From a virus (lineage: Duplodnaviria; Heunggongvirae; Uroviricota; Caudoviricetes), in IMG/VR virus record IMGVR_UViG_2711768058_000014: DNA of 14,974 bases, one strand, 5' to 3'. The stretch's first letter is position 1. Each line of letters begins with the position of its first letter. Shown here one piece after another: positions 1 through 14,974 of the stretch. The notes beneath the pieces are model-generated. The model had not been told where the DNA came from, ran no database searches, and was given only the letters and a program-made list of their open reading frames with translations. Position numbers and translations under genes: made by a program.

Positions 1-1218
1 ATGAACAAACTGAGCGACACATTGCTAAGGAAACTTCATGGTAAGCCAGCGGAGAAAAACACGTTTTATAGCGATGGCGGAAATCTGAGCGTGAAATATT
101 TAACATCAGGGAAATTAACCTGGTATTTCACTTACAGGGCAGGAACGGGAAGAGAGACACGACCGGAACGTATTAAGCTGGGAAATTATCCTGATCTGAG
201 TCTGAAAGCAGCCAGGGAAAAAGCCGCCCAGTGCCGCGCATGGCTGGCTGAGGGGAAAAATCCACGTCATGAGATGAATTACACCGTACAGGAAGCGTTA
301 AAGCCCGTAACGGTTGGCGATGCGCTCACCTACTGGCTTGAGTCTTACGTAAAGGAAAACCGCGTGGATTATATCGCCCTGAAAAGGCGACTTAATAATC
401 ACGTAATACAGCAGATTGGTGCTATGCCGCTGGATAAATGCGAGCTACGGCACTGGCTGGCCTGTTTTGACCAGGTGGCAAAGCGAACGCCTGTTACTGC
501 CGGATTCGTGCTACAGGCGTGCAAACAGGCGCTTAAGTTCTGCCGTAGGCGGCGCTATGCAATCAGCAACGTTCTGGACGATCTGAACGTGGCGGACGTT
601 GGGAAAAAACCGGATATAAGCGAACGTGTCTTAAGCACCAAAGAACTGGGCGAGTTATTGCAGGCGCTGGATAAAAAAATATTTTCCCCTTACTACGTCG
701 CGTTAATCCGCCTCCTGATTGTCTTCGGAGCCAGAACGGTAGAACTGAGGTTATCGGAGATCGGGGAGTGGGATTTTACGGAAATGCTATGGACCGTTCC
801 GAAGGAGCACAGCAAAACGAAGGTCGCAATATTCCGGCCCATACCGGAAGCGATCCTGCCGTTCGTCACGCAGCTGGTGGAGCAGAACAGGCACACGGGC
901 TTATTGCTGGGGGAAGCGAAACAGGAGGCCAGCGTATCGCAGTATGGAAGATTAGCGCACAGGAGGCTTAATCATCCTCACTGGTCACTGCATGACATCC
1001 GGCGCACCTTTACAACCATGCTGAACGATTTAGGCGTTGATCCGCATGTCGTGGAGCAGCTTACAGGTCATCAGATGCCAGGAATGCAGCGAGTTTATAA
1101 TCATTCCCGTTATCTGGATGCTAAACGCAATGCGCTGGATATGTGGACGGAGCGGTTAGGGATACTGGCGGGAACACATGAAAACGTAACCACGCTACCA
1201 GTAGCCAGAAGAAAATAA
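1..1218 (+). CDS. int: P4-family tyrosine integrase
   Basis: 405 aa; N-terminal arm-binding-type region (LSDTLLRKL...FYSDGGNLSVKY...KLGNYPDLSLKAAREKA) and C-terminal catalytic region with HDIRRTF...H...Y residues typical of tyrosine recombinases; ATG at position 1. Confidence 0.9.
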   Translation: MNKLSDTLLRKLHGKPAEKNTFYSDGGNLSVKYLTSGKLTWYFTYRAGTGRETRPERIKLGNYPDLSLKAAREKAAQCRAWLAEGKNPRHEMNYTVQEALKPVTVGDALTYWLESYVKENRVDYIALKRRLNNHVIQQIGAMPLDKCELRHWLACFDQVAKRTPVTAGFVLQACKQALKFCRRRRYAISNVLDDLNVADVGKKPDISERVLSTKELGELLQALDKKIFSPYYVALIRLLIVFGARTVELRLSEIGEWDFTEMLWTVPKEHSKTKVAIFRPIPEAILPFVTQLVEQNRHTGLLLGEAKQEASVSQYGRLAHRRLNHPHWSLHDIRRTFTTMLNDLGVDPHVVEQLTGHQMPGMQRVYNHSRYLDAKRNALDMWTERLGILAGTHENVTTLPVARRK

Positions 1219-3296: not shown

Positions 3297-3522
3297 TATT
3301 TACCACGAAACAATATACCGTGCATCACTTGCACTTTCTCACAGTGAAAGCATGATGGAAATATTGCGGATGTGCCTTGAATCCTTTGGCGATAATGAAC
3401 GTAATGCAAAAAAAACGCGGATTATTACATCATTAATAACGCTTCTTGAGCCTGTAATAAATGAGTTGCAGGAAATAGAGACATTGCACGACAGATATAA
3501 CGAACAGCACACCGGAGAATAA
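3289..3522 (+). CDS. Hypothetical small protein (77 aa, starts MRD)
   Basis: Start embedded in the same ATGCGTGAT junction as the preceding gene. Confidence 0.55.
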   Translation: MRDIYHETIYRASLALSHSESMMEILRMCLESFGDNERNAKKTRIITSLITLLEPVINELQEIETLHDRYNEQHTGE

Positions 3523-3527
3523 AAATA

Positions 3528-3827
3528 ATGAAACTTAAATATTCTGGCTTAACTGCCAGTGGCAACACTCACCCTAAATTTACGCGCGGTGATATTTACC
3601 GCGACCAGTACGGCGGCACGGTAATGATTAAGGGCGTGGAAGAACGGCGCGTAACCTACCGCCGTGAAGGCTACGAATATGACTGCGTGATGCCTGTTTA
3701 TCAGTTCCGGCGTGATTTTTCTCTGGTACAGGCAGCGCCCCGCAGTAAACCAACCAGCAGGGAGAAAGCACGCGCCAATATTCAGGAAATAAAAAAGATA
3801 CTTAACGTATTCAGGGGTAAAAAATGA
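3528..3827 (+). CDS. Hypothetical protein (99 aa)
   Basis: ATG 6 nt after the previous stop; its stop overlaps the primase start (ATGA). Confidence 0.6.
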   Translation: MKLKYSGLTASGNTHPKFTRGDIYRDQYGGTVMIKGVEERRVTYRREGYEYDCVMPVYQFRRDFSLVQAAPRSKPTSREKARANIQEIKKILNVFRGKK

Positions 3828-5578
3828 AACTGGCACCGAACGTAAAACAGCAGTCACGCGGCATAAAACACAAAGAAACAGAAGTCATTATTTTTGCGGG
3901 TAGTGATGCCTGGTCACACGCGAAACAATGGCAGGAACATGATGCGCGTATGGCCGGAGATAATGAGCCTCCTGTGTGGCTTGGGGAGCAGCAGCTATCC
4001 GAACTGGATAATCTGCAAATTGTGCCGGAAGGCCGAAAATCAGCACGCATATACAGGGCCGGATATCTTGCGCCAGTAATGATAAAGGCGATTGGCCAGA
4101 AGCTGGCGGCGGCAGGCGTACAGGATGCAAATTTTTACCCTGATGGTATGCACGGTCAGAAGGTGGAGAACTGGCGCGAATATCTGGCCCGTGAGCGCCA
4201 GAATCTTTCTGATGGTCTGGTCATTGAGCTTCCGGTAAAGCAAAAGGCGCAACTTTCGCAGATGGCGGACAGTGAGCGCGCGCAGCTGCTTGCCGATCGC
4301 TTTGATGGCGTTTGCGTACATCCTGAAAGTGAAATCGTTCACGTATGGCGCGGCGGGGTATGGTGTCCGGTCAGCACAATGGAACTTAGCCGCGAAATGG
4401 TGGCGATCTATTCAGAGCACAGGGCCACTTTCAGCAAGCGCGTAATCAATAACGCCGTGGAAGCGTTAAAAGTTATTGCCGAACCAATGGGCGAGCCGTC
4501 CGGCGATTTGCTGCCGTTCGCCAATGGTGCGCTTGACCTGAAAACGGGGGAATTTTCCCCGCACACGCCGGAGAACTGGATCACCACGCACAACGGCATT
4601 GAGTACACGCCACCAGCACCAGGGGAGAACATCCGCGATAACGCGCCAAACTTTCATAAATGGCTTGAGCACGCAGCCGGAAAAGACCCGCGCAAGATGA
4701 TGCGTATATGTGCCGCGCTGTACATGATTATGGCGAACCGGTACGACTGGCAGATGTTTATTGAGGCCACCGGAGATGGCGGGAGCGGTAAAAGTACATT
4801 CACGCACATAGCCAGCCTTCTGGCAGGGAAACAGAACACGGTAAGCGCTGAAATGACGTCGCTTGATGATGCTGGTGGACGTGCGCAGGTTGTCGGGAGT
4901 CGTCTTATCGTCCTGGCTGACCAGCCGAAATATACAGGCGAAGGAACGGGCATCAAGAAAATCACGGGCGGTGACCCCGTGGAAATTAACCCGAAATACG
5001 AAAAGCGTTTCACGGCTGTAATCAGGGCGGTGGTGCTGGCGACCAACAATAACCCGATGATATTCACCGAACGGGCCGGAGGTGTGGCACGTCGTCGCGT
5101 GATTTTCCGTTTCGACAATATCGTCAGTGAGGCCGACAAAGACAGGGAGCTACCGGAAAAGATCGCGGCTGAAATCCCTGTCATTATCCGCCGATTGCTG
5201 GCGAACTTTACCGACCCTGAGAAGGCACGGGCTTTACTACTGGAACAGCGTGACGGTGATGAAGCTCTGGCAATAAAGCAACAGACGGATCCGGTTATTG
5301 AGTTTTGCCAGTTCCTGAATTTTCTGGAGGAAGCACGCGGCCTGATGATGGGCGGCGGTGGCGATTCAGTGAAGTACACGACCAGAAACAGCCTTTACCG
5401 CGTCTATCTGGCGTTTATGGCGTACGCAGGCAGGAGCAAACCGCTAAACGTAAATGACTTTGGCAAGGCTATGAAGCCAGCCGCGAAAGTTTACGGACAT
5501 GAATATATTACGCGGAAAGTTAAGGGAGTAACGCAGACTAACGCAATAACAACAGACGAGTGCGACGCGTTTTTATAA
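3824..5578 (+). CDS. P4-family primase / D5-type NTPase replication initiator (pri-rep)
   Basis: 584 aa; Walker A GDGGSGKST about residue 320 followed by a Walker B-like hydrophobic stretch ending LIVLAD; region resembles the phage/plasmid primase P4 C-terminal domain; iterons immediately downstream. Confidence 0.85.
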   Translation: MKLAPNVKQQSRGIKHKETEVIIFAGSDAWSHAKQWQEHDARMAGDNEPPVWLGEQQLSELDNLQIVPEGRKSARIYRAGYLAPVMIKAIGQKLAAAGVQDANFYPDGMHGQKVENWREYLARERQNLSDGLVIELPVKQKAQLSQMADSERAQLLADRFDGVCVHPESEIVHVWRGGVWCPVSTMELSREMVAIYSEHRATFSKRVINNAVEALKVIAEPMGEPSGDLLPFANGALDLKTGEFSPHTPENWITTHNGIEYTPPAPGENIRDNAPNFHKWLEHAAGKDPRKMMRICAALYMIMANRYDWQMFIEATGDGGSGKSTFTHIASLLAGKQNTVSAEMTSLDDAGGRAQVVGSRLIVLADQPKYTGEGTGIKKITGGDPVEINPKYEKRFTAVIRAVVLATNNNPMIFTERAGGVARRRVIFRFDNIVSEADKDRELPEKIAAEIPVIIRRLLANFTDPEKARALLLEQRDGDEALAIKQQTDPVIEFCQFLNFLEEARGLMMGGGGDSVKYTTRNSLYRVYLAFMAYAGRSKPLNVNDFGKAMKPAAKVYGHEYITRKVKGVTQTNAITTDECDAFL

Positions 5579-5593
5579 TTTTTTGTAATTGCT

Positions 5594-5817
5594 GTCTACC
5601 CTGTCTACCTGAGTAAAGAAAAATACATTTAATTCAGTGCATTAAGTTAGGTAGATAGCCTTTTTTTACTGTCTACCCACTATCTACCCTCTCTACCTGA
5701 TTTTACCTGAATCAGACAGGGAGGTAGACACGGGGTAGATAGTGGATAAAAGCACTCTACCCCGCTGAAAGCCGCGCCATTACTGGTATGAGGGCCACTA
5801 AGGTAGATAAGGTAGAC
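5594..5817. repeat. Replication origin iterons: about 11 copies of heptamer (G/A/C)TCTACC in both orientations, with an AT-rich spacer
   Basis: GTCTACC at 5594, 5603, 5671; ATCTACC 5682; CTCTACC 5691, 5755; inverted GGTAGA(C/T) at 5650, 5723, 5734, 5802, 5811; AT-rich stretch 5620-5670. Confidence 0.7.
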
Positions 5818-5866
5818 AAGGGGAGGCACAACTCAAAACTTTTTAAACGAGGGGGTAAAAATAAAT

Positions 5867-6145
5867 ATGCACACTTCAGGGAAATTTAATAAATCACTCA
5901 AAAAACGCAGAGACAGAACAGAACCGAAATATCGCGCGTTAGACATGACAGAGCACGCTTTAAAGGTGGCAATCAGAACGATAGACCGCCACGCGGGGGA
6001 AGGATACGCGAAAGCACATCCCGAACTGATAAGCGCATTCATGACCACGACGGCGGCAAATTTTGCCACGCTGACAGAGCGGGAGATTGCCGAAGCGGAA
6101 CAGGTAACAACCATCAACGTTAAAACCGGAGAGGTGGAATCATGA
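5867..6145 (+). CDS. Hypothetical protein (92 aa)
   Basis: GAGGGGG ribosome-binding site; ATGA overlap with the downstream SSB-like gene. Confidence 0.55.
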   Translation: MHTSGKFNKSLKKRRDRTEPKYRALDMTEHALKVAIRTIDRHAGEGYAKAHPELISAFMTTTAANFATLTEREIAEAEQVTTINVKTGEVES

Positions 6146-6552
6146 CAGCACAGATAGCAGCTTACGGGCGGCTGGTGGACGACCCGCAGGTAAAACAGAC
6201 CAGCAAGGGTACACCGATGACGCTGGCGCGTATGGCGGTATCGCTGCCATGTAGTCAGGCGCAGGATGGGCAGGCGACGTTATGGCTATCGGTCATCGCA
6301 TTTGGTAAGCAGGCCGACTTCCTGGCTAAACATCAAAAAGGCGACGTTGCCAGCGTATCCGGCACGATGCAGGTCAGCCAGTGTACCGGACAGAATGGGG
6401 AAACGCGGCAGGGTTATCAGGTTATTGCAGACAGCGTAATCAGTGCCCGTGCGGCACTTCCTGGCGGGAACAGACGCAAAACCACAGGCACACAGGGTAA
6501 TCAGCCACCAGCGGGAGGCGATGACCCTTACGGTGACGGTATTCCGTTCTGA
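6142..6552 (+). CDS. Divergent single-stranded-DNA-binding (SSB)-like protein
   Basis: 136 aa; OB-fold-like N-terminal part (AAYGRLVDDPQVKQT...LWLSVIAFGKQADFLAKH...), Gly/Pro/Gln-rich linker and acidic tail ending DDPYGDGIPF (compare SSB DDDIPF). Confidence 0.7.
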   Translation: MTAQIAAYGRLVDDPQVKQTSKGTPMTLARMAVSLPCSQAQDGQATLWLSVIAFGKQADFLAKHQKGDVASVSGTMQVSQCTGQNGETRQGYQVIADSVISARAALPGGNRRKTTGTQGNQPPAGGDDPYGDGIPF

Positions 6553-6562
6553 GGGGGTGGCG

Positions 6563-6835
6563 ATGGTACATGACCGCATAGCGGAAGAACTCGAGGCGAA
6601 AGGCTTTTACCGGAGGGCGGCGGCGCGATGGGGTGAAGTCATGCTGCTGGTGGAGACAGACAAGGAACGGCATCAGGTTACGATGCGACGGCTGGAATGT
6701 TCCAGGAAGGCACAGAAGCCACCGGAGCCGCCGGATAACTTCGGAGACCTGAGAAAGGCAGTAGATCGCACTTATGCTGAAATGGGTATAGATGGTGTAA
6801 GCGATGAAATATGGCGTAATTACCCAGACAGCTAA
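6563..6835 (+). CDS. PerC-like small transcriptional regulator (tentative)
   Basis: 90 aa from ATG after GAGGGGGTGG; N-terminal MVHDRIAEELEAKGFYRRAAARWGEV recalled as PerC-family-like; not verified. Confidence 0.45.
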   Translation: MVHDRIAEELEAKGFYRRAAARWGEVMLLVETDKERHQVTMRRLECSRKAQKPPEPPDNFGDLRKAVDRTYAEMGIDGVSDEIWRNYPDS

Positions 6836-6840
6836 TCAAC

Positions 6841-6865
6841 AGCCGGAGAAATCCGGCTTTTTTTG
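6841..6865 (+). terminator. Rho-independent terminator (AGCCGGA-gaaa-TCCGGCT then T7)
   Basis: Perfect 7-bp GC-rich stem, 4-nt loop and U-tract directly after the PerC-like gene. Confidence 0.7.
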
Positions 6866-6959
6866 CACCAGTTGAAACGGTATGGTGCATTACCGGGTTT
6901 TCGTCACGGTCAGGCATAGTTACTATCTGAAACAAACAGACACAACAGAGGAAAAAACA

Positions 6960-7184
6960 ATGCCGATGAAATTTGATGAGATATTAAAACAGCGTGATAA
7001 ATACCATGCTGACAACATGGAGACGATGAGCATCAATGATTACCGCGCATTCCTGGAGACGGGCGCACTGATTGAAAAGGATCAGCATGGTTTTGTGAGA
7101 TGTGCTCTATCCGGTGAAATGCTGGCGGTAAATCCTGAACAGATAGATGCATTGATAGAATTTCTGAAAGGGATCAGGGACTGA
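6960..7184 (+). CDS. Hypothetical small protein (74 aa), cassette-like ORF between identical terminators
   Basis: GAGG ribosome-binding site; flanked by 24-bp identical terminator repeats. Confidence 0.5.
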   Translation: MPMKFDEILKQRDKYHADNMETMSINDYRAFLETGALIEKDQHGFVRCALSGEMLAVNPEQIDALIEFLKGIRD

Positions 7185-7194
7185 GCACCCATAC

Positions 7195-7218
7195 AGCCGG
7201 AGAAATCCGGCTTTTTGT
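7195..7218 (+). terminator. Second copy of the same terminator hairpin
   Basis: acagccggagaaatccggcttttt is identical at 6839-6862 and 7193-7216. Confidence 0.65.
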
Positions 7219-7438
7219 CATTTTTTGTAAATTATTTGTTCGTGGTTGTTCCACGTTGTTCACTGAGCGGATCGGCATATTTTACCCGAACTGAATCATG
7301 ATTATTCTCGCCCGTGGTGCCAGGACGCTGGGGCCACTTTTCCGCCTGTTAATGTTCTCGCCAATATTCATTACCAGGCGGGAAAACGATCGGTGCGATT
7401 GCTGATTTCCTTATGAAAAACGGTTGAGTTTTTGCCGC

Positions 7439-7475
7439 GTCCTGGAGTTCCTTACTTAACCCCAGGACTTTTTTT
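7439..7475 (+). terminator. Terminator-like hairpin GTCCTGG-(16 nt)-CCAGGAC plus T7, ending at the capsid ATG
   Basis: 7-bp stem at 7439-7445 and 7462-7468, U-tract 7469-7475, ATG at 7476; no Shine-Dalgarno sequence. Confidence 0.5.
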
Positions 7476-8633
7476 ATGCCGAGAATAATCGAATTACGCC
7501 AGCAGAAAACCGCCATTAAAAATCAGATGCGCGACATGCTGGAGAACGCGGAAAAAGAAAACCGCAGTCTTAACGATGCTGAGGGCGCAAAATTTGACGA
7601 ATTACGCACTAAAGCTGAATCCCTCGATAAAGACATTTCCCGCCTTGAAGCCATTGCAGACGAAGAGCGCAGCAAGCCAGGTAAAAGCAGTCAGACCACT
7701 GACCCCGCAGAACTACGCAACTACATCCTGACAGGTGAAACCCGCGCATTAAGTACAGGCGTTCCCGCTGATGGTGGTTATACCGTTATCCCCGAGCTGA
7801 ACACCGAAATCATGCGAATGCTGGCGGATGAATCCACCATGCGCCGCATCTGTACCGTGAAGAAAATCAGCAGCAACGAGTTTAAGCAGCTTGTTTCCGC
7901 TGGCGGTGCGACCGTTAACCACGGTGAAGAGGGTAAGGCACGCGAACAGACCAGCACCCCGCAGATTAACGAGGTGAGCATTAAGCTGTATCCGGTCTAT
8001 GCGTACCCGCGCACCACACAGGAAATCGTGGATTTTTCCGATGTGGACATCCTTTCATGGCTGACGGGTGAGATTGGCGACACCTTCACGGAAACCGAAG
8101 AAAGCGATCTGGTTGTGGGCGACGGTGACAAAAAAGCAAAAGGTTTTTTATCCGTACCCCGTGCAGAGAAGAACGACAAAGAGCGTGATTTTGGTACGTT
8201 GCAGGTAATTAAACCTTCCGAATCTCTGGCGTGGACATCTGCGGACCCGCTGATCGACCTGAAATTTGCATTACGTAAAAAATACCGCAAAAACGCGGTC
8301 TGGGTGGTTAACTCCACGACGGCGGCAAAACTTCAGAAGGTGAAGAACGCGAACGGTGATTACATCTGGCGCGACCGTTTACAGGCGGGTGATCCTGATA
8401 CGTTGCTGGGCCTTCCGGTCGAATATCTGGAGTTTATGCCTGATAACGTTATTGCCCTGGGTGACTTCAAACGCGGTTACTACATTGTTGATCACGAAAC
8501 AGGTGTTCGCACCAGACCGGACAACCTCACAGAGCCGGGCTTCATCAAAATTTTCACGCAGAAATATTTAGGCGGTGGCGTGGTGGATTCGAACGCGATC
8601 AAGATTCTGGAACTGCCACAAGACGACGATTAA
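7476..8633 (+). CDS. HK97-fold major capsid protein with N-terminal coiled-coil delta (scaffold) domain
   Basis: 385 aa; coiled-coil N-terminus (RQQKTAIKNQMRDMLENAEKE...DKDISRLEAIADEER) then a capsid-like body; size and position next to protease and portal. Confidence 0.9.
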   Translation: MPRIIELRQQKTAIKNQMRDMLENAEKENRSLNDAEGAKFDELRTKAESLDKDISRLEAIADEERSKPGKSSQTTDPAELRNYILTGETRALSTGVPADGGYTVIPELNTEIMRMLADESTMRRICTVKKISSNEFKQLVSAGGATVNHGEEGKAREQTSTPQINEVSIKLYPVYAYPRTTQEIVDFSDVDILSWLTGEIGDTFTETEESDLVVGDGDKKAKGFLSVPRAEKNDKERDFGTLQVIKPSESLAWTSADPLIDLKFALRKKYRKNAVWVVNSTTAAKLQKVKNANGDYIWRDRLQAGDPDTLLGLPVEYLEFMPDNVIALGDFKRGYYIVDHETGVRTRPDNLTEPGFIKIFTQKYLGGGVVDSNAIKILELPQDDD

Positions 8634-8643
8634 CAGCATACAG

Positions 8644-8672
8644 AAGGGGCTTAAAAGCCCCTTTAGTGTTTT
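8644..8672 (+). terminator. Hairpin AAGGGGC-ttaaaa-GCCCCTT with U-rich tail after the capsid gene (partial terminator)
   Basis: Read directly from sequence; placement typical of attenuation after a highly expressed capsid gene. Confidence 0.45.
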
Positions 8673-8687
8673 ATGGGTGAAAAAATT

Positions 8688-9245
8688 ATGAAGAGTATGG
8701 AAATCCGGTCATCGGAAATCACCACCAGCGGAGCCGGTACGCTGACGGGCTACGTTGTTCGCTGGGATAAGCTTTCAGAACTGCTATGGGGGGAGTTTTA
8801 CGAAAAATTCCAGCGGGGGGCGTTTACTGAGTGGCTTGCGGCGGGTAATGACGTTCGCGGCCTGTATGAGCATGACCACAGCATGTTACTGGGGCGCACC
8901 CGTTCCGGCACGCTGAAACTGGAAGAGGACGACACAGGGTTACGCTTTGAACTTACCCCACCGGATACCAGCACAGGGCGTGACGTTATCGAACTGGTTA
9001 AACGTGGTGATATATCCGGCATGAGCTTTGGCTTTCGTTCCCGTAAGGATGTATGGGATACCACAACAGATCCATGCGTGCGCACCGTGCTGGTGGCGGA
9101 ACTGTACGAAATTACCGTTACATCCGTACCGGCTTACCCTGATTCCGGCGTGGAGCTGGCCCGCCGTTCCCTGTATGAGCAGCACCCCGAAAAAATGCCG
9201 CGTGCGGATAATCGCCGCTGGTGGGCGGATTTAGCGGGGGTGTGA
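8688..9245 (+). CDS. HK97-family prohead protease (S78-like)
   Basis: GYVVRWDKLS...GAFTEWL...LYEHDHSMLLGRT...GDISGMSFGF pattern; start could instead be the ATG at 8673 (no ribosome-binding site there). Confidence 0.85.
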   Translation: MKSMEIRSSEITTSGAGTLTGYVVRWDKLSELLWGEFYEKFQRGAFTEWLAAGNDVRGLYEHDHSMLLGRTRSGTLKLEEDDTGLRFELTPPDTSTGRDVIELVKRGDISGMSFGFRSRKDVWDTTTDPCVRTVLVAELYEITVTSVPAYPDSGVELARRSLYEQHPEKMPRADNRRWWADLAGV

Positions 9246-9246
9246 T

Positions 9247-10458
9247 ATGTGGCCTTTCAGAAGAAAAAAAGAGCAGCGCAGCATGACGCTGGATGAATTT
9301 ATGGCGCTGGCCGGCACATCGAACACGGGGTCGGGTGAGTACGTATCATCGGGGACAGCGGAATCACTGCCCGCCGTCATGAACGCCGTCACGGTCATCT
9401 CTGAGGCGGTGGCTACCATGCCATGCTACCTGTACCTGGTACGCAATGAGAAGGGGAAGGAGGCCCGAGAGTGGCTTGATTCTCATCCGGTCGATCACAT
9501 CCTCAACGAGCGCCCGAACGCGTGGCAGACTCCCTACCAGTTTAAGCGAATGATGATCCGCCACTGCCTGTTAAACGGTAATGCTTATGCGGTGATTCAG
9601 TGGGGGCGTGATGGTTTTCCGGTGGCTTTACATCCTTACCCGCCGCAGTCGGTGAACGTGGAGCAGACAGGCGAACACAACTGGCGCTACTGCATCACTG
9701 ACGCCTACACCGGAAACACCCGCAACTATTTACCGTGGGAGGTTCTCCACCTTCGTTACTCCACGGATGACGGTTTTATGGGGCGCTCACCTGTAACCAT
9801 CTGCCGCGAATCGCTGGGGCTTGGGCTGGCCCAACAACGCCACGGCGCGAGCGTGATGCGTGATGGCATGATGGCGGCAGGGGTTATCACGTCAGGCGAA
9901 TGGCTGGACGGCGTGAAAGGCAAACAGGCATTAGCCGCACTGGAACGCTACAAAGGGGCCAGAAACGCCGGAAAAACGCCCATCCTTGAAGGGGGTATGA
10001 GCTATCAGCAGCTGGGCATGAGTAATCAGGATGCTGAATGGCTGGCCTCCCGTCGCTTCACCATTGAAGACATCGCCCGAATGTTCAACGTCTCGCCGAT
10101 TTTTTTGCAGGAATACAGCAACAGCACCTACAGCAATTTCAGCGAGGCAAGCCGCGCATTTCTCACTATGACGATGCGCCCGTGGCTGGCGAACTTTGAG
10201 CAGCAGATAAAAAACGCCCTGCTGGTGGCCTCGCCTGTACCTGGTATCCGGTATCAGGTGGAGTTTGACAGCGCGGACCTGTTACGGGCCACACCTGGCG
10301 AACGCTTTGCCACCTATGAACGCGGCATCAAATCCGGCGTTATGTGCCCGAACGAAGCCCGCGAACGTGAAGGGCTGTCCCCGCGTGATGGTGGTGATGA
10401 GTTCAGCCAGGCATGGAAACAGGAAGTAAAAATCAGCGAGGGAGAAAAACCGGAATGA
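9247..10458 (+). CDS. HK97-family portal protein
   Basis: 403 aa; portal-like conserved central and C-terminal regions (EDIARMFNVSPIFLQEY...MRPWLANFEQQI); start overlaps the protease stop. Confidence 0.9.
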   Translation: MWPFRRKKEQRSMTLDEFMALAGTSNTGSGEYVSSGTAESLPAVMNAVTVISEAVATMPCYLYLVRNEKGKEAREWLDSHPVDHILNERPNAWQTPYQFKRMMIRHCLLNGNAYAVIQWGRDGFPVALHPYPPQSVNVEQTGEHNWRYCITDAYTGNTRNYLPWEVLHLRYSTDDGFMGRSPVTICRESLGLGLAQQRHGASVMRDGMMAAGVITSGEWLDGVKGKQALAALERYKGARNAGKTPILEGGMSYQQLGMSNQDAEWLASRRFTIEDIARMFNVSPIFLQEYSNSTYSNFSEASRAFLTMTMRPWLANFEQQIKNALLVASPVPGIRYQVEFDSADLLRATPGERFATYERGIKSGVMCPNEAREREGLSPRDGGDEFSQAWKQEVKISEGEKPE

Positions 10459-10793
10459 ACATAGGGCGACTGCGTGACAGGGTAACGATTCAGACCCTGA
10501 AACAGACCAGGGATATAACCGGCGAAATACTCGAAACGTGGGAGGACGGTCACACACTCTGGGCAAGCGTGAACATGATCAGCAGCAAGGAGGCCATTTC
10601 ATCGGGTGCAGAGCTGGCGATTGGTACCGTAAGGATCTGGATACGGTACCGGAAGGACATCAACGCCACCAGCCGGATAAAGGTCAGTACGGGGCCGCTG
10701 GCGGGGCGTGTACTGAATATCATCGGGCAGCCGCTGCCGGATGCCGCCAGGACACGCCTTGAAATTCTTTGTCGTGAGGGCGCGGAAAAATGA
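10455..10793 (+). CDS. Head closure / head-tail adaptor protein (Phage_H_T_join-like)
   Basis: MNIGRLRDRVTIQ...IRYRKDI...LEILCRE pattern; ATGA overlap with the portal stop. Confidence 0.75.
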   Translation: MNIGRLRDRVTIQTLKQTRDITGEILETWEDGHTLWASVNMISSKEAISSGAELAIGTVRIWIRYRKDINATSRIKVSTGPLAGRVLNIIGQPLPDAARTRLEILCREGAEK

Positions 10794-11086
10794 CAGAAGA
10801 ACTTATCACCCTGGAAGAAGTGAAACTCCATTGCCGCATCGATGGCGACGAGGAAGACCAGTTAATCAGCGGATACATTGCCGCATCGCTTGAGGCGTGC
10901 CAGATACATATAGGCAGGCGCTTTGATGACGGGCTGGAGTTCACGCCAGCCATAAAGATTGGCTGCATGATGTTTATCGCTCACCTGTACGAGAATCGCC
11001 AGCTGGTAGCGGATAACGCAAAAACGCGCGTACCCATGACGATTGGCGCGCTCTGGACGGCTTACCGTGATGTGGGGGTGTACTGA
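10790..11086 (+). CDS. gp6-like head-tail connector protein
   Basis: ITLEEVKLHCRIDGDEEDQLISGYIAASLEA resembles the Phage_connect_1 N-terminus; ATGA-type overlaps at both ends. Confidence 0.7.
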   Translation: MTEELITLEEVKLHCRIDGDEEDQLISGYIAASLEACQIHIGRRFDDGLEFTPAIKIGCMMFIAHLYENRQLVADNAKTRVPMTIGALWTAYRDVGVY

Positions 11087-11526
11087 TGCCGTGGCAACCA
11101 TTAAGACGATGCACAGAACCAGGCTGTAACAGGCGCGTGAAGTCCGGCAAGTGTGAGGAGCACAGGCGGGCGGCATGGCGTGCAGAGGATGCCAGACGAG
11201 GACACCGCCGCGCGCGTGGGTACTCCAGACAGTGGGACAAATACCGCGCCATGTATCTGAGTAAAAACCCGTTATGCGTGCGATGCCTTGAGAAGGGGAT
11301 ATATACGCCCGCCGTGGTGGTGGATCACATTATCCCGATTAATGGCGGTGATGATGTTCTCTTCTGGCCCGAATGGAACCATCAACCATTGTGCCAGGCG
11401 TGTCATAACCAGAAAACGAAATGGCTTGATCCGGCAACAAAAAGCAAGCGTGCCGCAGGTGGATTTCATGAAGAGGAAGAACGGGCCGCTAACCGCAATA
11501 ACTGGATGTATGACGCTGATGAATGA
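11086..11526 (+). CDS. HNH endonuclease, packaging-associated
   Basis: CxxC...DHIIPINGG...WNHQPLCQACHNQKT: HNH motif with zinc ligands; sits just upstream of TerS/TerL. Confidence 0.85.
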   Translation: MPWQPLRRCTEPGCNRRVKSGKCEEHRRAAWRAEDARRGHRRARGYSRQWDKYRAMYLSKNPLCVRCLEKGIYTPAVVVDHIIPINGGDDVLFWPEWNHQPLCQACHNQKTKWLDPATKSKRAAGGFHEEEERAANRNNWMYDADE

Positions 11527-11692
11527 GCGGGAACAAAACCGCCTTATCCGTGGACTTATAAGGCAGCGTGACGCATGGAAGACACAGGAAACAGGGCATA
11601 AAGATAAAGCGTCAGGACGCGCAGAACGCATCACAGCGAAGCGATTAACCGACCGTGACCGCGAGGTTATGGAATGTTTCCGCAATCGCTGA
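11510..11692 (+). CDS. Possible small ORF (60 aa) overlapping the HNH 3' end
   Basis: ATG in the +2 frame 17 nt before the HNH stop; no clear ribosome-binding site; basic and helical. Confidence 0.25.
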   Translation: MTLMNEREQNRLIRGLIRQRDAWKTQETGHKDKASGRAERITAKRLTDRDREVMECFRNR

Positions 11693-11814
11693 TGAGGCTG
11701 TATGACGGGGTGGGGGGCGTTTTCAGGACAAACCCGACCCCGCCGGGCACCGAACGCCTCCTCAAATTTTTATGCACGGGAATTTTTTGAAAAATAATCT
11801 GACGAAAAATAAGC

Positions 11815-12171
11815 ATGGCAAGACCACCGAAAGCCCCCGCCTACCTGGATGACATCGCCGTGAAGCAGTGGCGGGAAAAATCGCGGCAGCTTGCGGAACG
11901 GGGAGACCTGACCCCCGCCGACTGGAGCAATCTGGAACTGTATTGTGTCAACTACTCCATTTACCGGAAAGCCGTCGCAGACCTTGCGGCGCGCGGGTTC
12001 AGTATTGTTAACAGTCAGGGCGGCGAGAGCAGAAACCCCGCATTAAGCGCGAAATCAGACGCTGAAAGGGTGATGATAAAAATGGCCTCCTTGCTCGGTT
12101 TTGACCCGATAAGCCGCCGTAAAAACCCACCGGAAACAGAAGAAGAGGACGAGCTTGACCGCCTGGAATAA
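11815..12171 (+). CDS. terS: Terminase small subunit (P27-family-like)
   Basis: 118 aa; PADWSNLELYCVNYSIYRKAVADLAARGF...LLGFDPISRRK pattern; overlaps the TerL start. Confidence 0.8.
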   Translation: MARPPKAPAYLDDIAVKQWREKSRQLAERGDLTPADWSNLELYCVNYSIYRKAVADLAARGFSIVNSQGGESRNPALSAKSDAERVMIKMASLLGFDPISRRKNPPETEEEDELDRLE

Positions 12172-13816
12172 GTACGCAGAAGACGTAAAAACGGGCAAAA
12201 TTCCGGCCTGTAAACGGCTGAAACAGGCCGTTAAACGGTACTTTTCGGACCTTAAAAGCCCCCTATACACGTTCGATCGTGAGGTTGTGGAGCGGTTTAT
12301 TTCCTTTTCCAGGGTGTGCCCGCACGTAAAAGGACCGATGCGTGGCAGACCCATTGAGCTGGAGCCGTGGCAGCAGTTCGCCTTTGCGTGCATCCTCGGC
12401 TTTAAGGTTAAGGCCACCGGACGGCGCAAATACACGAGCGCCTTTATCGAAGTGCCGCGCAAAAATGCGAAATCCACGACCGCCGCGATTCTGGCTAACT
12501 GGTTTCTGATTATGGAGAACGGTCAGCAGGATATCTACACCGCAGCGGTGAGCCGTGACCAGGCGCGGATCGTCTTTGATGATGCGCGTCAGATGTGCCT
12601 TTTATCCCGACCGTTACGCAGGCGGGTGAATATTCAGGCGCATAAGGTGATACACCCGAAAAGCAACAGCCTGTTAAAGCCGCTGGCAGCAAAAGCGGCA
12701 ACCATCGAGGGAACAAACCCAAGCCTTTCCATCGTGGACGAATACCACTTGCACCCCGATAACGGCGTTTATTCCGCGCTTGAGCTGGGGATGGGCGCAC
12801 GTCCCGAAGGGCTGTTATTTGCCATTACCACATCAGGCAGCAACGTCGTTTCAGCCTGTAAGCAGCACTATGATTATTGCTGCCAGATCCTGGACGGCGA
12901 AGAGGTTAACGATTCAATTTTTGTACTGATTTACGAACTGGACGACGAAAACGAGGTTGATGATCCGGCGATGTGGATAAAGGCGAACCCTAATATTGAT
13001 GTTTCCGTCGATCGTGAAAAACTGGCCTCAACCATCCAGAAAGCGCGGGGTATTCCGTCGCAGTGGGTGGAGATGATGACAAAGCGATTTAATATCTGGT
13101 GCCAGGGGGCTACCCCGTGGATGGGTAACGGCGCATGGGCTGAGTGTGCCGGAACGTTCACGGAGGAAGATTTACACGGCCAGGAGTGTTACGCGGGGCT
13201 GGACTTATCATCAACCAGCGATATTTCCAGCGTGTGCTATGCCTTTCCGGTCGGTAAAACCATTATGCTGGTTTCCCGTCACTATCTGCCGGAATTTCAG
13301 CTACAGAACCCCGCCAATAAAAACCGCGCCATCTATCGTCAGTGGGCTAAAGCAGGCTGGATACGCACAACGCCTGGCGACTGCATTGATTACGACCGGA
13401 TCAGAGATGACATCATGCAGGACGCGGAGAAATTTAATATCAGGCTGGTGGGCTTTGATACGTGGAACGCCACGCATCTCAGAACGCAATTACAGGGGGC
13501 AGGTTTTGAGGTGGAGCCGTTCCCGCAAACCTACCTCAGATTCAGTCCGGCGGCGAAATCGTTCGAAGTTTTTGTTAACCGCAGGGTGATTGTGCATCGT
13601 GGCGATCCGGTGTTGTCCTGGTCGATGAGTAACGTCGTGATGCAGAGTGACGCGAACGCCAATATCAAGCCGAACAAGAAAAAATCACCGAACAAGATAG
13701 ACCCGAGCGTGGCGGCGCTGATGGCGTTTGGTACATTCCAGGCAGAGCATGAGGATTTTGCTTTTGATATAAGCGACAGCCACCGCCAGAAACTGGAAGA
13801 ATTTAGCGGGGTGTAA
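12155..13816 (+). CDS. terL: Terminase large subunit (ATPase-nuclease)
   Basis: 553 aa; ATPase region with Walker A-like VPRKNAKST and downstream acidic nuclease-like residues; TTG start after GAGGA. Confidence 0.9.
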   Translation: MTAWNKYAEDVKTGKIPACKRLKQAVKRYFSDLKSPLYTFDREVVERFISFSRVCPHVKGPMRGRPIELEPWQQFAFACILGFKVKATGRRKYTSAFIEVPRKNAKSTTAAILANWFLIMENGQQDIYTAAVSRDQARIVFDDARQMCLLSRPLRRRVNIQAHKVIHPKSNSLLKPLAAKAATIEGTNPSLSIVDEYHLHPDNGVYSALELGMGARPEGLLFAITTSGSNVVSACKQHYDYCCQILDGEEVNDSIFVLIYELDDENEVDDPAMWIKANPNIDVSVDREKLASTIQKARGIPSQWVEMMTKRFNIWCQGATPWMGNGAWAECAGTFTEEDLHGQECYAGLDLSSTSDISSVCYAFPVGKTIMLVSRHYLPEFQLQNPANKNRAIYRQWAKAGWIRTTPGDCIDYDRIRDDIMQDAEKFNIRLVGFDTWNATHLRTQLQGAGFEVEPFPQTYLRFSPAAKSFEVFVNRRVIVHRGDPVLSWSMSNVVMQSDANANIKPNKKKSPNKIDPSVAALMAFGTFQAEHEDFAFDISDSHRQKLEEFSGV

Positions 13817-13829
13817 TGAGGTCAGCAGC

Positions 13830-14111
13830 ATGACAGAAGCCGAAATAACGGGATTAATCCGCCGCGTTGCCGGAATCAGCCAGCAGGTTGACGAACAGGC
13901 CACGCAGCCGGACAGCGTGACAGCCGAAAACTATGCGCGTGTTGTTGCTGAGGTGATGCGCCGTGATGGTATAGAACTTAATGGCGTGGATATGCGCAAC
14001 ATACGAACCAGAGTTCTTGAGTTGCTGGCCTACCGTCGCCGCGTGGAGATGTATCGGGAGAAGGAGAAAATAACGTACCACTGGAAGAAGCCGGAGCGGT
14101 TGCGGCGGTAA
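13830..14111 (+). CDS. Hypothetical protein (93 aa), last island gene after TerL
   Basis: GAGG ribosome-binding site 8 nt upstream of ATG; helical and charged; no recognisable motif. Confidence 0.5.
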   Translation: MTEAEITGLIRRVAGISQQVDEQATQPDSVTAENYARVVAEVMRRDGIELNGVDMRNIRTRVLELLAYRRRVEMYREKEKITYHWKKPERLRR

Positions 14112-14227
14112 CTGGTTGATATTCCCGACGGCCCAAAAATGGGTTGGCTACACCCCTCACAACTACGACATTTTCGCAGTTTAATTAATGGTCAGCTTAA
14201 TCGCTAACCCGCTGATATTTTCGGAAA

Positions 14228-14630
14228 CCTCAATTTGAGGAAGTCGGCGCGGTAACTCGCTGAACTTTAAGCAAAGCGCAAAATTGCGCTTGCGGAATAA
14301 TCATTATGATTACGCAGATGATTAAGGAATGACCGAAGGCGGAAATTCGCCTGTGGTTAATGGGGGAGTTGCAGATCTGCAACTCGACCATGAAACTACG
14401 GAAACTACCCGTAGTTTGGGTAGTAAGAGTAACACCCAGATTTTGGGGCTTACTCGTGATACCCAAATTTGGGGTATCAGTGGCAACCATAACGACTTTC
14501 GTTACGGTTGATGCTTTTACCCCATTGGGGGAAAGGTATTACGATAATCATAACACCTACCGAACAGGTAAAGCCCACCAGCCTGATTAACGTTTAACCG
14601 GAAAAAAATTCCGGTAGGTGGGGATCCCCA
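14228..14630. repeat. Cluster of at least seven different short perfect or near-perfect palindromes (hairpin-capable)
   Basis: CCTCAAtTTGAGG 14228-14240; AAGCGCAAAATTGCGCTT 14274-14291; AGTTGCAGATCTGCAACT 14367-14384; AAACTACccGTAGTTT 14402-14417; GATACCCaaatttgGGGTATC 14458-14478; ACCGGAAaaaaaTTCCGGT 14597-14615; TGGGGATCCCCA 14619-14630. Confidence 0.6.
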
Positions 14631-14741
14631 TATCGACATTAACGCCCCTCATGAATTGGTGTGCTTCCCCCTGGAAAGATGATCCGCCTGTATATTTCTT
14701 GTGTCTATTTGTTCCACGTTGTTTCATACAGTGCACCGAAC

Positions 14742-14765
14742 GGTGTAGTCACTGGTGTAGTCATT
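14742..14765. repeat. Tandem 12-bp direct repeat GGTGTAGTCA(C/T)T x2 next to palindrome CACCGaaCGGTG
   Basis: 14742-14753 and 14754-14765; palindrome 14734-14745; candidate recombinase arm-type sites near the right junction. Confidence 0.45.
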
Positions 14766-14809
14766 TTGCGATTTTTGGCACTTTTTGCGGTGTTAATTAT
14801 TTAATTAAA

Positions 14810-14974
14810 TCAATGTGTTATGCGAAATAAGTTATATATAACAGCAATAAATAATGCGAGAATAAACGGCACGATGATCTCGGCGGCAAAACGGATACCG
14901 CAGAGAATAATGACCAGCATTCCCAACATAATGACGATTTTTAGGCCATTGAGCGTGATGATCGGCTTTGCCAT
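14810..14974 (-). pseudogene. tqsA: Truncated 5' fragment (54 codons) of a tqsA/ydgG-like inner-membrane transporter gene
   Basis: Minus-strand translation [54 protein letters not shown]; N-terminus recalled as TqsA-like; the premature stop falls where island DNA begins. Confidence 0.5.

Follow-up and report, generated by a model that had tools for sequence, protein, structure and literature searches.

A probable capsid-forming PICI in Escherichia coli tqsA and the anatomy of its attachment site

The window, meaning the whole 14,974-nucleotide stretch of DNA analyzed here, is very probably a ~15-kb capsid-forming PICI (cf-PICI) integrated in E. coli tqsA, with positions 14709-14974 serving as its right attachment site, attR. 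Host identity ends abruptly inside the gene, the missing part of tqsA lies directly beyond the opposite end of the island, and the two ends share a 9-bp core, ATAACAGCA, within which, on comparison of the occupied and empty sites, recombination must fall.

Gene content and class of the island

The island carries an integrase gene at its left end, a small regulatory region, and a long block of replication and head genes, all read on the plus strand:

1-1218, plus strand: tyrosine integrase of P4-like architecture, with PF13356 (Arm-DNA-bind_3, E = 1e-18) and PF00589
1593-1781, plus strand: AlpA-family small DNA-binding protein (PF05930, E = 5e-18)
3824-13816, plus strand: rest of the cf-PICI, with D5-type primase, HK97-type capsid, protease, portal, head closure, connector, HNH, TerS, and TerL

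RefSeq starts int at a GTG codon 12 nt left of the first base of the window, and the catalytic residues of a tyrosine integrase are present in the alignment within ARTVE (R245), HDIRR (H331, R334), GHQ (H357), and VYNH (Y366). The AlpA-family protein corresponds to the PICI activator and is likely to act as recombination directionality factor too. Combining Pfam matches with the RefSeq annotation of E. coli JMF1, gene order runs from int through AlpA and Icd-like small genes, the D5-type primase (D5_N/DUF5906/Pox_D5 in Pfam), SSB, and PerC to the head and terminase genes, and no tail or lysis genes are found among the 24 CDS that RefSeq annotates within the JMF1 island. A length within ~10-18 kb, int at one end, a short direct repeat, alpA with a primase-type gene, and a head/terminase set together place the island among cf-PICIs.

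In the cf-PICI prototype EcCIEDL933 (bioRxiv 10.1101/2022.09.08.507074), the gene plan is alike, with int, alpA, a primase-type gene, capsid, protease, portal, connectors, HNH, TerS, and TerL, and with tail and lysis genes absent. The preprint counts six E. coli attB sites for cf-PICIs, four of them common to classical PICIs (Alqurainy et al., bioRxiv 10.1101/2022.09.08.507074). The classical PICIs EcCI042 and EcCIK1516 share the published core ATAACAGCA in tqsA with the window, and the arms of the predicted excised site (attP) are essentially the same in 11-kb classical PICIs at tqsA. Those islands differ in being ~11 kb long and in carrying a phage-capsid-redirecting module (capsid-like, decoration, TerS/Rpp-type), whereas the window holds a full HK97-like head and terminase module in ~15 kb total. 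The TIGER islands Eco282.16.tqsA, Eco33.11.tqsA, and Eco557.15.tqsA (PMC7192596) are likewise 11-16 kb elements in tqsA that disrupt a Pfam domain without restoring it; they come from a purely computational survey in which att anatomy and PICI or cf-PICI identity are not given.

The tqsA junction and its occupancy

The right end of the window and its counterparts in other genomes are described by the following features:

14838-14974, minus strand: host-derived 5' end of tqsA, from the start codon to codon 45 plus 2 nt, with TqsA protein identity up to residue 46
14810-14974, minus strand: truncated ORF of 54 codons, made up of TqsA residues 1-46, eight element-encoded codons (YNLFRITH), and a TAA stop
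14838-14846: att core ATAACAGCA, 9 bp, duplicated at attL and attR
attB: GGGTTAAGAATAACAGCAATAAATAATG, from an unoccupied genome (L002)
attL: GGGTTAAGAATAACAGCATTTTATCATTT, from two carrier genomes (L001 and L003)
attR: AAGTTATATATAACAGCAATAAATAATG, from the window

The initial annotation named the N-terminus of TqsA/YdgG on the minus strand, and this identification is borne out: 14838-14974 matches the first 137 nt of annotated tqsA at 100% in more than 5,000 E. coli genomes. A megablast query of 14400-14974 matched 5,423 of 5,426 complete E. coli genomes. In nearly all of these only 14838-14974 is covered, at 99-100% identity, and the gene is annotated 'tqsA: AI-2 transporter TqsA', while the entire 575 bp is found in 208 of the 5,426. 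Host identity stops at 14838, placing the divergence at 14837/14838, inside the range of 14830-14840 estimated earlier. The 54-codon length of the frame was also read correctly, although its stop lies ~45 bp right of the tandem repeats and not right where they begin, as had been stated. The full-length TqsA of the unoccupied genome scores 268 bits against PF01594 (AI-2E transporter family) and has the same length and sequence class as PDB 7NB6; a Pfam search with the 54-aa ORF alone returns no match. In both carrier genomes that were inspected, RefSeq labels the 5' piece a partial pseudogene.

Alignment to the intact tqsA locus of the unoccupied genome indicates that the gene runs on past 14838 with a different sequence, and thus an uninterrupted gene with the sequence of the window is ruled out. 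The 3' part, which the initial annotation proposed to seek upstream of int beyond the left edge, is found there: the remaining 906 bp of tqsA lie directly left of int in both carriers (L003 2407-3312). One of these, L003, is E. coli JMF1, whose copy of the island is 100% identical to the window over all 14,974 bp. The attL copies of the core are at 3305-3313 in L003 and at 2936-2944 in L001, and the island measures ~15.0 kb from core to core (L003 3305-18344). At the core, attL, attR, and attB have only the 9 bp ATAACAGCA in common; past a 3-bp gap after it, four more bases match (GTTAnnnATAACAGCA).

As an in-silico equivalent of PCR for the empty site, the survey of complete genomes finds tqsA uninterrupted, with an intact attB, in 5,174 of 5,426, and split at the ATAACAGCA site in ~249. 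Gene disruption and a protein-coding att site, offered earlier as alternatives, both hold and are a single fact. Classical PICIs of 11 kb and cf-PICIs of 15 kb sit at this one junction, and it recurs in strain W24 with an island whose right arm is only ~90% identical. One junction shared by different island types and by a diverged arm points to repeated, independent, site-specific events. These observations agree with the literature, in which 'ATAACAGCA / tqsA' is given as the PICI att site of EcCI042 and EcCIK1516 (Fillol-Salom et al. 2018, Table S1, PMC6092414) and tqsA is listed among core genes disrupted by integrated elements (Bobay et al. 2013, PMC3603311).

Core anatomy and a sister island at roxA-phoQ

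A comparison for the core is offered by EcCICFT073-type PICIs, which are integrated between roxA (ycfD) and phoQ:

14840-14846: proposed overlap (strand-exchange) region AACAGCA, 7 bp, placed by homology to the sister attP
14832-14839: candidate core-type integrase half-site TTATATAT, on the element side, within the palindrome GTTATATATAAC
14831-14842: palindrome GTTATATATAAC, sitting on the att core
tqsA-type attP: left half-site TTATATAT, overlap AACAGCA, right half-site TTTTATCA
roxA-phoQ sister attP: left half-site TGATAAAA, overlap GGACATA, right half-site TTTTATCA

The integrases of the two island types are 90% identical, and their arms, with the core excluded, agree at ~95%; the tandem repeats, the TGTTYCA pairs, and the C' half-site TTTTATCA are among the shared elements. 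They differ in that a ~27-bp core block is replaced, reading TGATAAAA-GGACATA there and TTATATAT-AACAGCA here, and in that the sister attB is intergenic (core GGACATATTT), so that no gene is disrupted. That core is published as 'GGACATATTT / ycfD-phoQ' for EcCICFT073 (Fillol-Salom Table S1, PMC6092414), and it is confirmed by the reconstructed empty roxA-phoQ site, which is present at >=80% coverage in 4,823 genomes.

In the sister attP, GGACATA is flanked by a perfect inverted repeat, TGATAAAA/TTTTATCA, with a 7-bp spacer. A gapless alignment of the two attP sequences sets AACAGCA opposite GGACATA and TTATATAT opposite TGATAAAA, and for this reason the overlap is placed at 14840-14846; the 7-bp overlap of the tqsA-type islands is accordingly proposed to be AACAGCA. 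The window core does not have the clean inverted repeat of its sister, since TTATATAT matches TGATAAAA at five of eight positions. The overlap is identical between attP and attB, being part of the shared 9-bp core, and the host half-sites to its left are alike, with TTAAGAAT in tqsA and TGAAGTAT at roxA-phoQ.

The core replacement is itself gapless (L004 4843-4857 and 17359-17368; alignment columns 263-290, window 14820-14846). From these alignments, a small core cassette, together with about a dozen substitutions in Int, seems to account for the switch in target specificity. In the E. coli O157:H7 strain Show KS 470-1, an IS3-family element breaks the integrase gene of the roxA-phoQ PICI close to the 5' end (L004 5137-6350), and that island is probably locked in place. 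An integrase search of genome contigs returned one locus, a roxA-phoQ-type island of Shigella flexneri in which the int ORF is interrupted.

Arm repeats and other motifs near the junction

Left of the core, five features are of note:

14710-14716 and 14720-14726, plus strand: pair of TGTTYCA motifs, 10 bp apart, the second repeated arm motif
14734-14745: palindrome CACCGAACGGTG, overlapping the first arm repeat
14742-14765, plus strand: tandem 12-bp repeats GGTGTAGTCA(C/T)T, candidate arm-type integrase sites of the P arm
14799-14810: palindrome ATTTAATTAAAT, containing the ORF stop codon
14808-14820, plus strand: IHF-consensus-like site AATCAATGTGTTA (WATCARNNNNTTR), between the arm repeats and the core

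The tandem repeats and a nearby palindrome had been put forward as possible integrase or excisionase arm-type sites, an idea that fares well for the repeats and poorly for the palindrome. The two repeat copies are exact, GGTGTAGTCACT at 14742-14753 and GGTGTAGTCATT at 14754-14765, and a scan of the window allowing at most one mismatch finds no further copy; none of 200 shuffles reaches the observed repeat count. A second tandem pair occupies the left arm (L003 3442-3465), leaving 24 bp between its end and the int start codon. The island has four copies of GGTGTAGTCAYT in all, in one orientation; in attP order, one tandem pair lies to the left of the core at a distance of 72 bp and the other to its right at 128 bp. 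The sister island at roxA-phoQ keeps this layout with a variant unit, GGTGTAGT(T/C)AAT. In the W24 arm the repeat is kept with one change, and the ~70-bp block that holds the repeats is the best-conserved part of that diverged arm. The integrase combines an arm-binding domain, PF13356, with repeated sites that are predicted from sequence on both attP arms. Repeats on both arms, their conserved block, and PF13356 in Int together give good comparative support to the four GGTGTAGTCAYT repeats, two per arm, as candidate arm-type sites for the integrase N-terminal domain.

It is also conceivable, though rather unlikely, that the GGTGTAGTCAYT repeats are operators for another protein (AlpA/RDF or an int repressor) or duplications of no function. 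The left-arm pair lies where a transcriptional operator plausibly could, and for EcCIDI14 the same repeat is published under the plain label 'att site core' (Fillol-Salom Table S1, PMC6092414). The placement of the repeats on both arms in one orientation, at 72 and 128 bp from the core, is nevertheless the classical P/P' arm layout, their conservation in the W24 block and the presence of Arm-DNA-bind_3 in Int argue in the same direction, and islands that differ in the repeat variant (CACT versus TAAT) also differ in the Int N-terminal domain. A role as arm-type sites remains the preferred reading.

The published EcCIDI14 'att site core', CGGTGTAGTTAATGGTGTAGTTAATT (PMC6092414 Table S1), corresponds to the tandem arm repeat (window 14741-14766) that the islands described here have on both arms. 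It is probably the arm repeat and not the crossover core. The 14-bp tandem repeats given for yejM-luxR islands in the same table may be a similar case.

The second arm motif, TGTTYCA, is present in six copies, all on the plus strand, forming three pairs with an exact 10-bp spacing that are confined to the two att arms; ~0.15 copies are expected in that much DNA. The left-arm pairs are at L003 3337-3353 and 3400-3416, and the right-arm pair is invariant in four aligned right arms. As a guess, TGTTYCA could be a candidate site for an AlpA-type directionality factor or another accessory protein. The match to the IHF consensus at 14808-14820 is kept in the metagenome contig L006, in W24, and in the O157 sister island despite divergent neighboring bases, which hints that this short motif may be an IHF site.

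The palindrome CACCGaaCGGTG was rejected as a separate site, as it is lost on the left arm and degraded in W24. The counterpart of its longer form CACCGAACGGTG is CAACGATCGGTG on the left arm and CGCCGAACGGTG in W24, and CACCGAACGGTG is probably incidental. A promoter and terminator scan of 13800-14974 finds such sites no more frequently than in shuffled sequence.

The excised form

Excision is predicted to join the right arm, ATAACAGCA, the left arm, and int in that order, giving an attP sequence that contains AAGTTATATATAACAGCATTTTATCATTT. A search of viral contigs with an exact 31-mer of attP gave no match because of polymorphisms 5' of the core, and shorter patterns succeeded. In place of the PCR for an excised circle that had been suggested, this in-silico equivalent found attP in two metagenome contigs, both of them 11-kb classical PICIs that have the int-attP module in common with the window and neither of them the 15-kb cf-PICI itself. 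In the first, the IMG/VR metagenome contig L006, the initial 119 nt are perfectly repeated at the end, leaving a unit of 10,979 bp, and this perfect terminal repeat indicates a circle or a concatemer. Its Int is 99% identical to that of the window, L006 being the one contig compared. In the second, L033 (ENA metagenome contig CYGL01000683.1, 11,271 bp), attP is internal. L033 has no terminal repeat; it may derive from an 11-kb PICI in linear, packaged (cos-ended), or permuted form.

Fate of tqsA

Integration leaves no intact full-length transporter gene, as tqsA is split after codon 46. Judging from the hydrophobic pattern, the break would fall within the second hydrophobic stretch of TqsA. 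The 3' fragment comprises 301 codons and enters the PF01594 profile (327 positions) near position 32, the missing residues 1-46 corresponding to approximately the first 31 positions. The reading frames at the junction show that the island provides no replacement N-terminus and that tqsA is disrupted. The PF01594 domain is broken with no restoration by the element, and separate events have struck one and the same position, which is the pattern of regulated gene integrity. The survey of Mageeney et al. (2020, PMC7192596) treats 11-16 kb tqsA islands in the same way, recording domain disruption without restoration and proposing regulated gene integrity.

Some integrated elements preserve the gene that they enter; when e14 and phage 21 integrate at icd, gene function is restored. 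An equivalent outcome at tqsA, in which the element gives a new start, N-terminus, or promoter and a functional TqsA is made from the 3' part, is highly improbable. A 60-codon ORF in the left arm is in phase with the 3' part of tqsA, and in-frame ATG and GTG codons occur a few codons into the fragment. Against this, consecutive in-frame stops, TGA-TAA, stand at the junction between the left-arm ORF and the tqsA codons, and for that reason a replacement N-terminus was rejected. The fragment is also without residues 1-46, RefSeq calls both tqsA pieces pseudogenes, and Mageeney et al. (PMC7192596) score the gene as disrupted without restoration.

The left-arm ORF is annotated in L003 at 3319-3501 on the minus strand, just left of window position 1, as a 60-aa hypothetical protein (WP_001332680.1). 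It runs antisense over the int start and the left-arm repeats, ends with TGA-TAA at the tqsA junction, and has no match in a Pfam search. It is probably not a real gene.

Nothing was found in favor of reading the truncation as an error of assembly, or as a deletion or rearrangement with no link to site-specific integration. Such a reading has a negligible probability, given the identical junction in 208 complete genomes that span diverse serotypes and hosts, a reciprocal attL with a 9-bp duplication that refutes this reading, and the two attP contigs. Disruption by site-specific integration thus stands, and since the core is identical at both ends, excision should, by in-silico reasoning, regenerate attB and rebuild tqsA exactly.

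Structured and repeated regions elsewhere in the island

Upstream of the attachment region, 14350-14535 is a non-coding segment with dense nested inverted repeats that folds into four to five hairpins with a minimum free energy of -88.5 kcal/mol (z = -8.95 on the plus strand and -8.46 on the minus strand). Other PICI-like islands, inserted at other sites, for instance beside tRNA-Ile/mug, contain a counterpart of 14361-14483 with 74-95% identity, which lies at their right end and follows immediately on a homologous ~93-aa ORF. The hairpins are preserved in these relatives, with a few compensatory or symmetric changes. Searches of the window and the right arm against Rfam at gathering and E-value thresholds returned nothing meaningful, the only hit being TD-1 at 20.9 bits against a 64.5-bit threshold. 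A lambda-type cos site was considered for this region and rejected, as cosN GGGCGGCGACCT is absent. The segment may encode a structured RNA, or its palindromes may form a set of binding sites for protein.

Two other repeat regions are present. Three diverged direct repeats of ~32 nt (CGsTAACnnGyTGAwnTTy…), spaced 96 and 48 bp apart, follow the 93-aa ORF (13830-14111) at 14106-14281. Directly downstream of the D5-type primase (3824-5578), five short tandem-repeat arrays with units CTGTCTACC, ACTATCTACCC, TAAGGTAGA, and others occupy 5570-5821, a region whose appearance suggests an iteron-type origin of replication for the island.

Proposed mechanism

The junctions show that the P4-like tyrosine integrase recombined the attP of the circular island with an attB inside codons 44-46 of tqsA, with the exchange falling within the shared 9-bp core. 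As a result, a 137-nt 5' piece of tqsA stands at the island's right end, and the 3' piece, 906 nt long, stands left of int. The IHF-like site and the paired TGTTYCA motifs, whose roles are conjectural, may help to fold the arms onto the core. Excision would probably be driven by the AlpA-family protein upon induction of the island by a helper phage, and Int could repress its own gene through the left-arm repeats 24 bp upstream of its start.

Significance

The feature is an ordinary one, since the ATAACAGCA/tqsA att site and the disruption of tqsA have already been described, and the main value of the analysis lies in correct annotation of the window as a cf-PICI at a published PICI att site within tqsA. 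It adds an attP map that covers the core, a probable 7-bp overlap, the repeats of the two arms, a second motif in pairs, and a site resembling the IHF consensus, as well as direct sightings of the excised junction in metagenomes. A further addition is that tqsA and roxA-phoQ specificity differ by a small core cassette in near-identical int-attP modules.

Owing to islands at the ATAACAGCA site, ~4-5% of complete E. coli genomes are without an intact AI-2 exporter gene. Two speculative readings of this arrangement, to which we give a low probability, concern its regulation and its evolution: the split of tqsA may be a reversible switch, and, in a more technical vein, Int, 90% identical between the two island types, may have been retargeted from roxA-phoQ to tqsA by exchange of the ~27-bp attP core cassette. 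Active lysogeny and regulated gene integrity are exemplified by the comK phage phi10403S in Listeria and by the sigK skin element. In those systems, as at tqsA, a site-specific element splits a conserved gene that precise excision can rebuild; they differ in that their excision is demonstrably regulated and has a phenotype. A regulatory switch for tqsA was proposed on computational grounds in 2020 (Mageeney et al., PMC7192596). If the switch exists, an integrated satellite would abolish AI-2 export, and AlpA-driven excision triggered by a helper phage would rebuild tqsA, coupling quorum-signal export to satellite induction in a form of regulated gene integrity. If Int is retargeted by swaps of the core cassette, this integrase family would be easy to reprogram.
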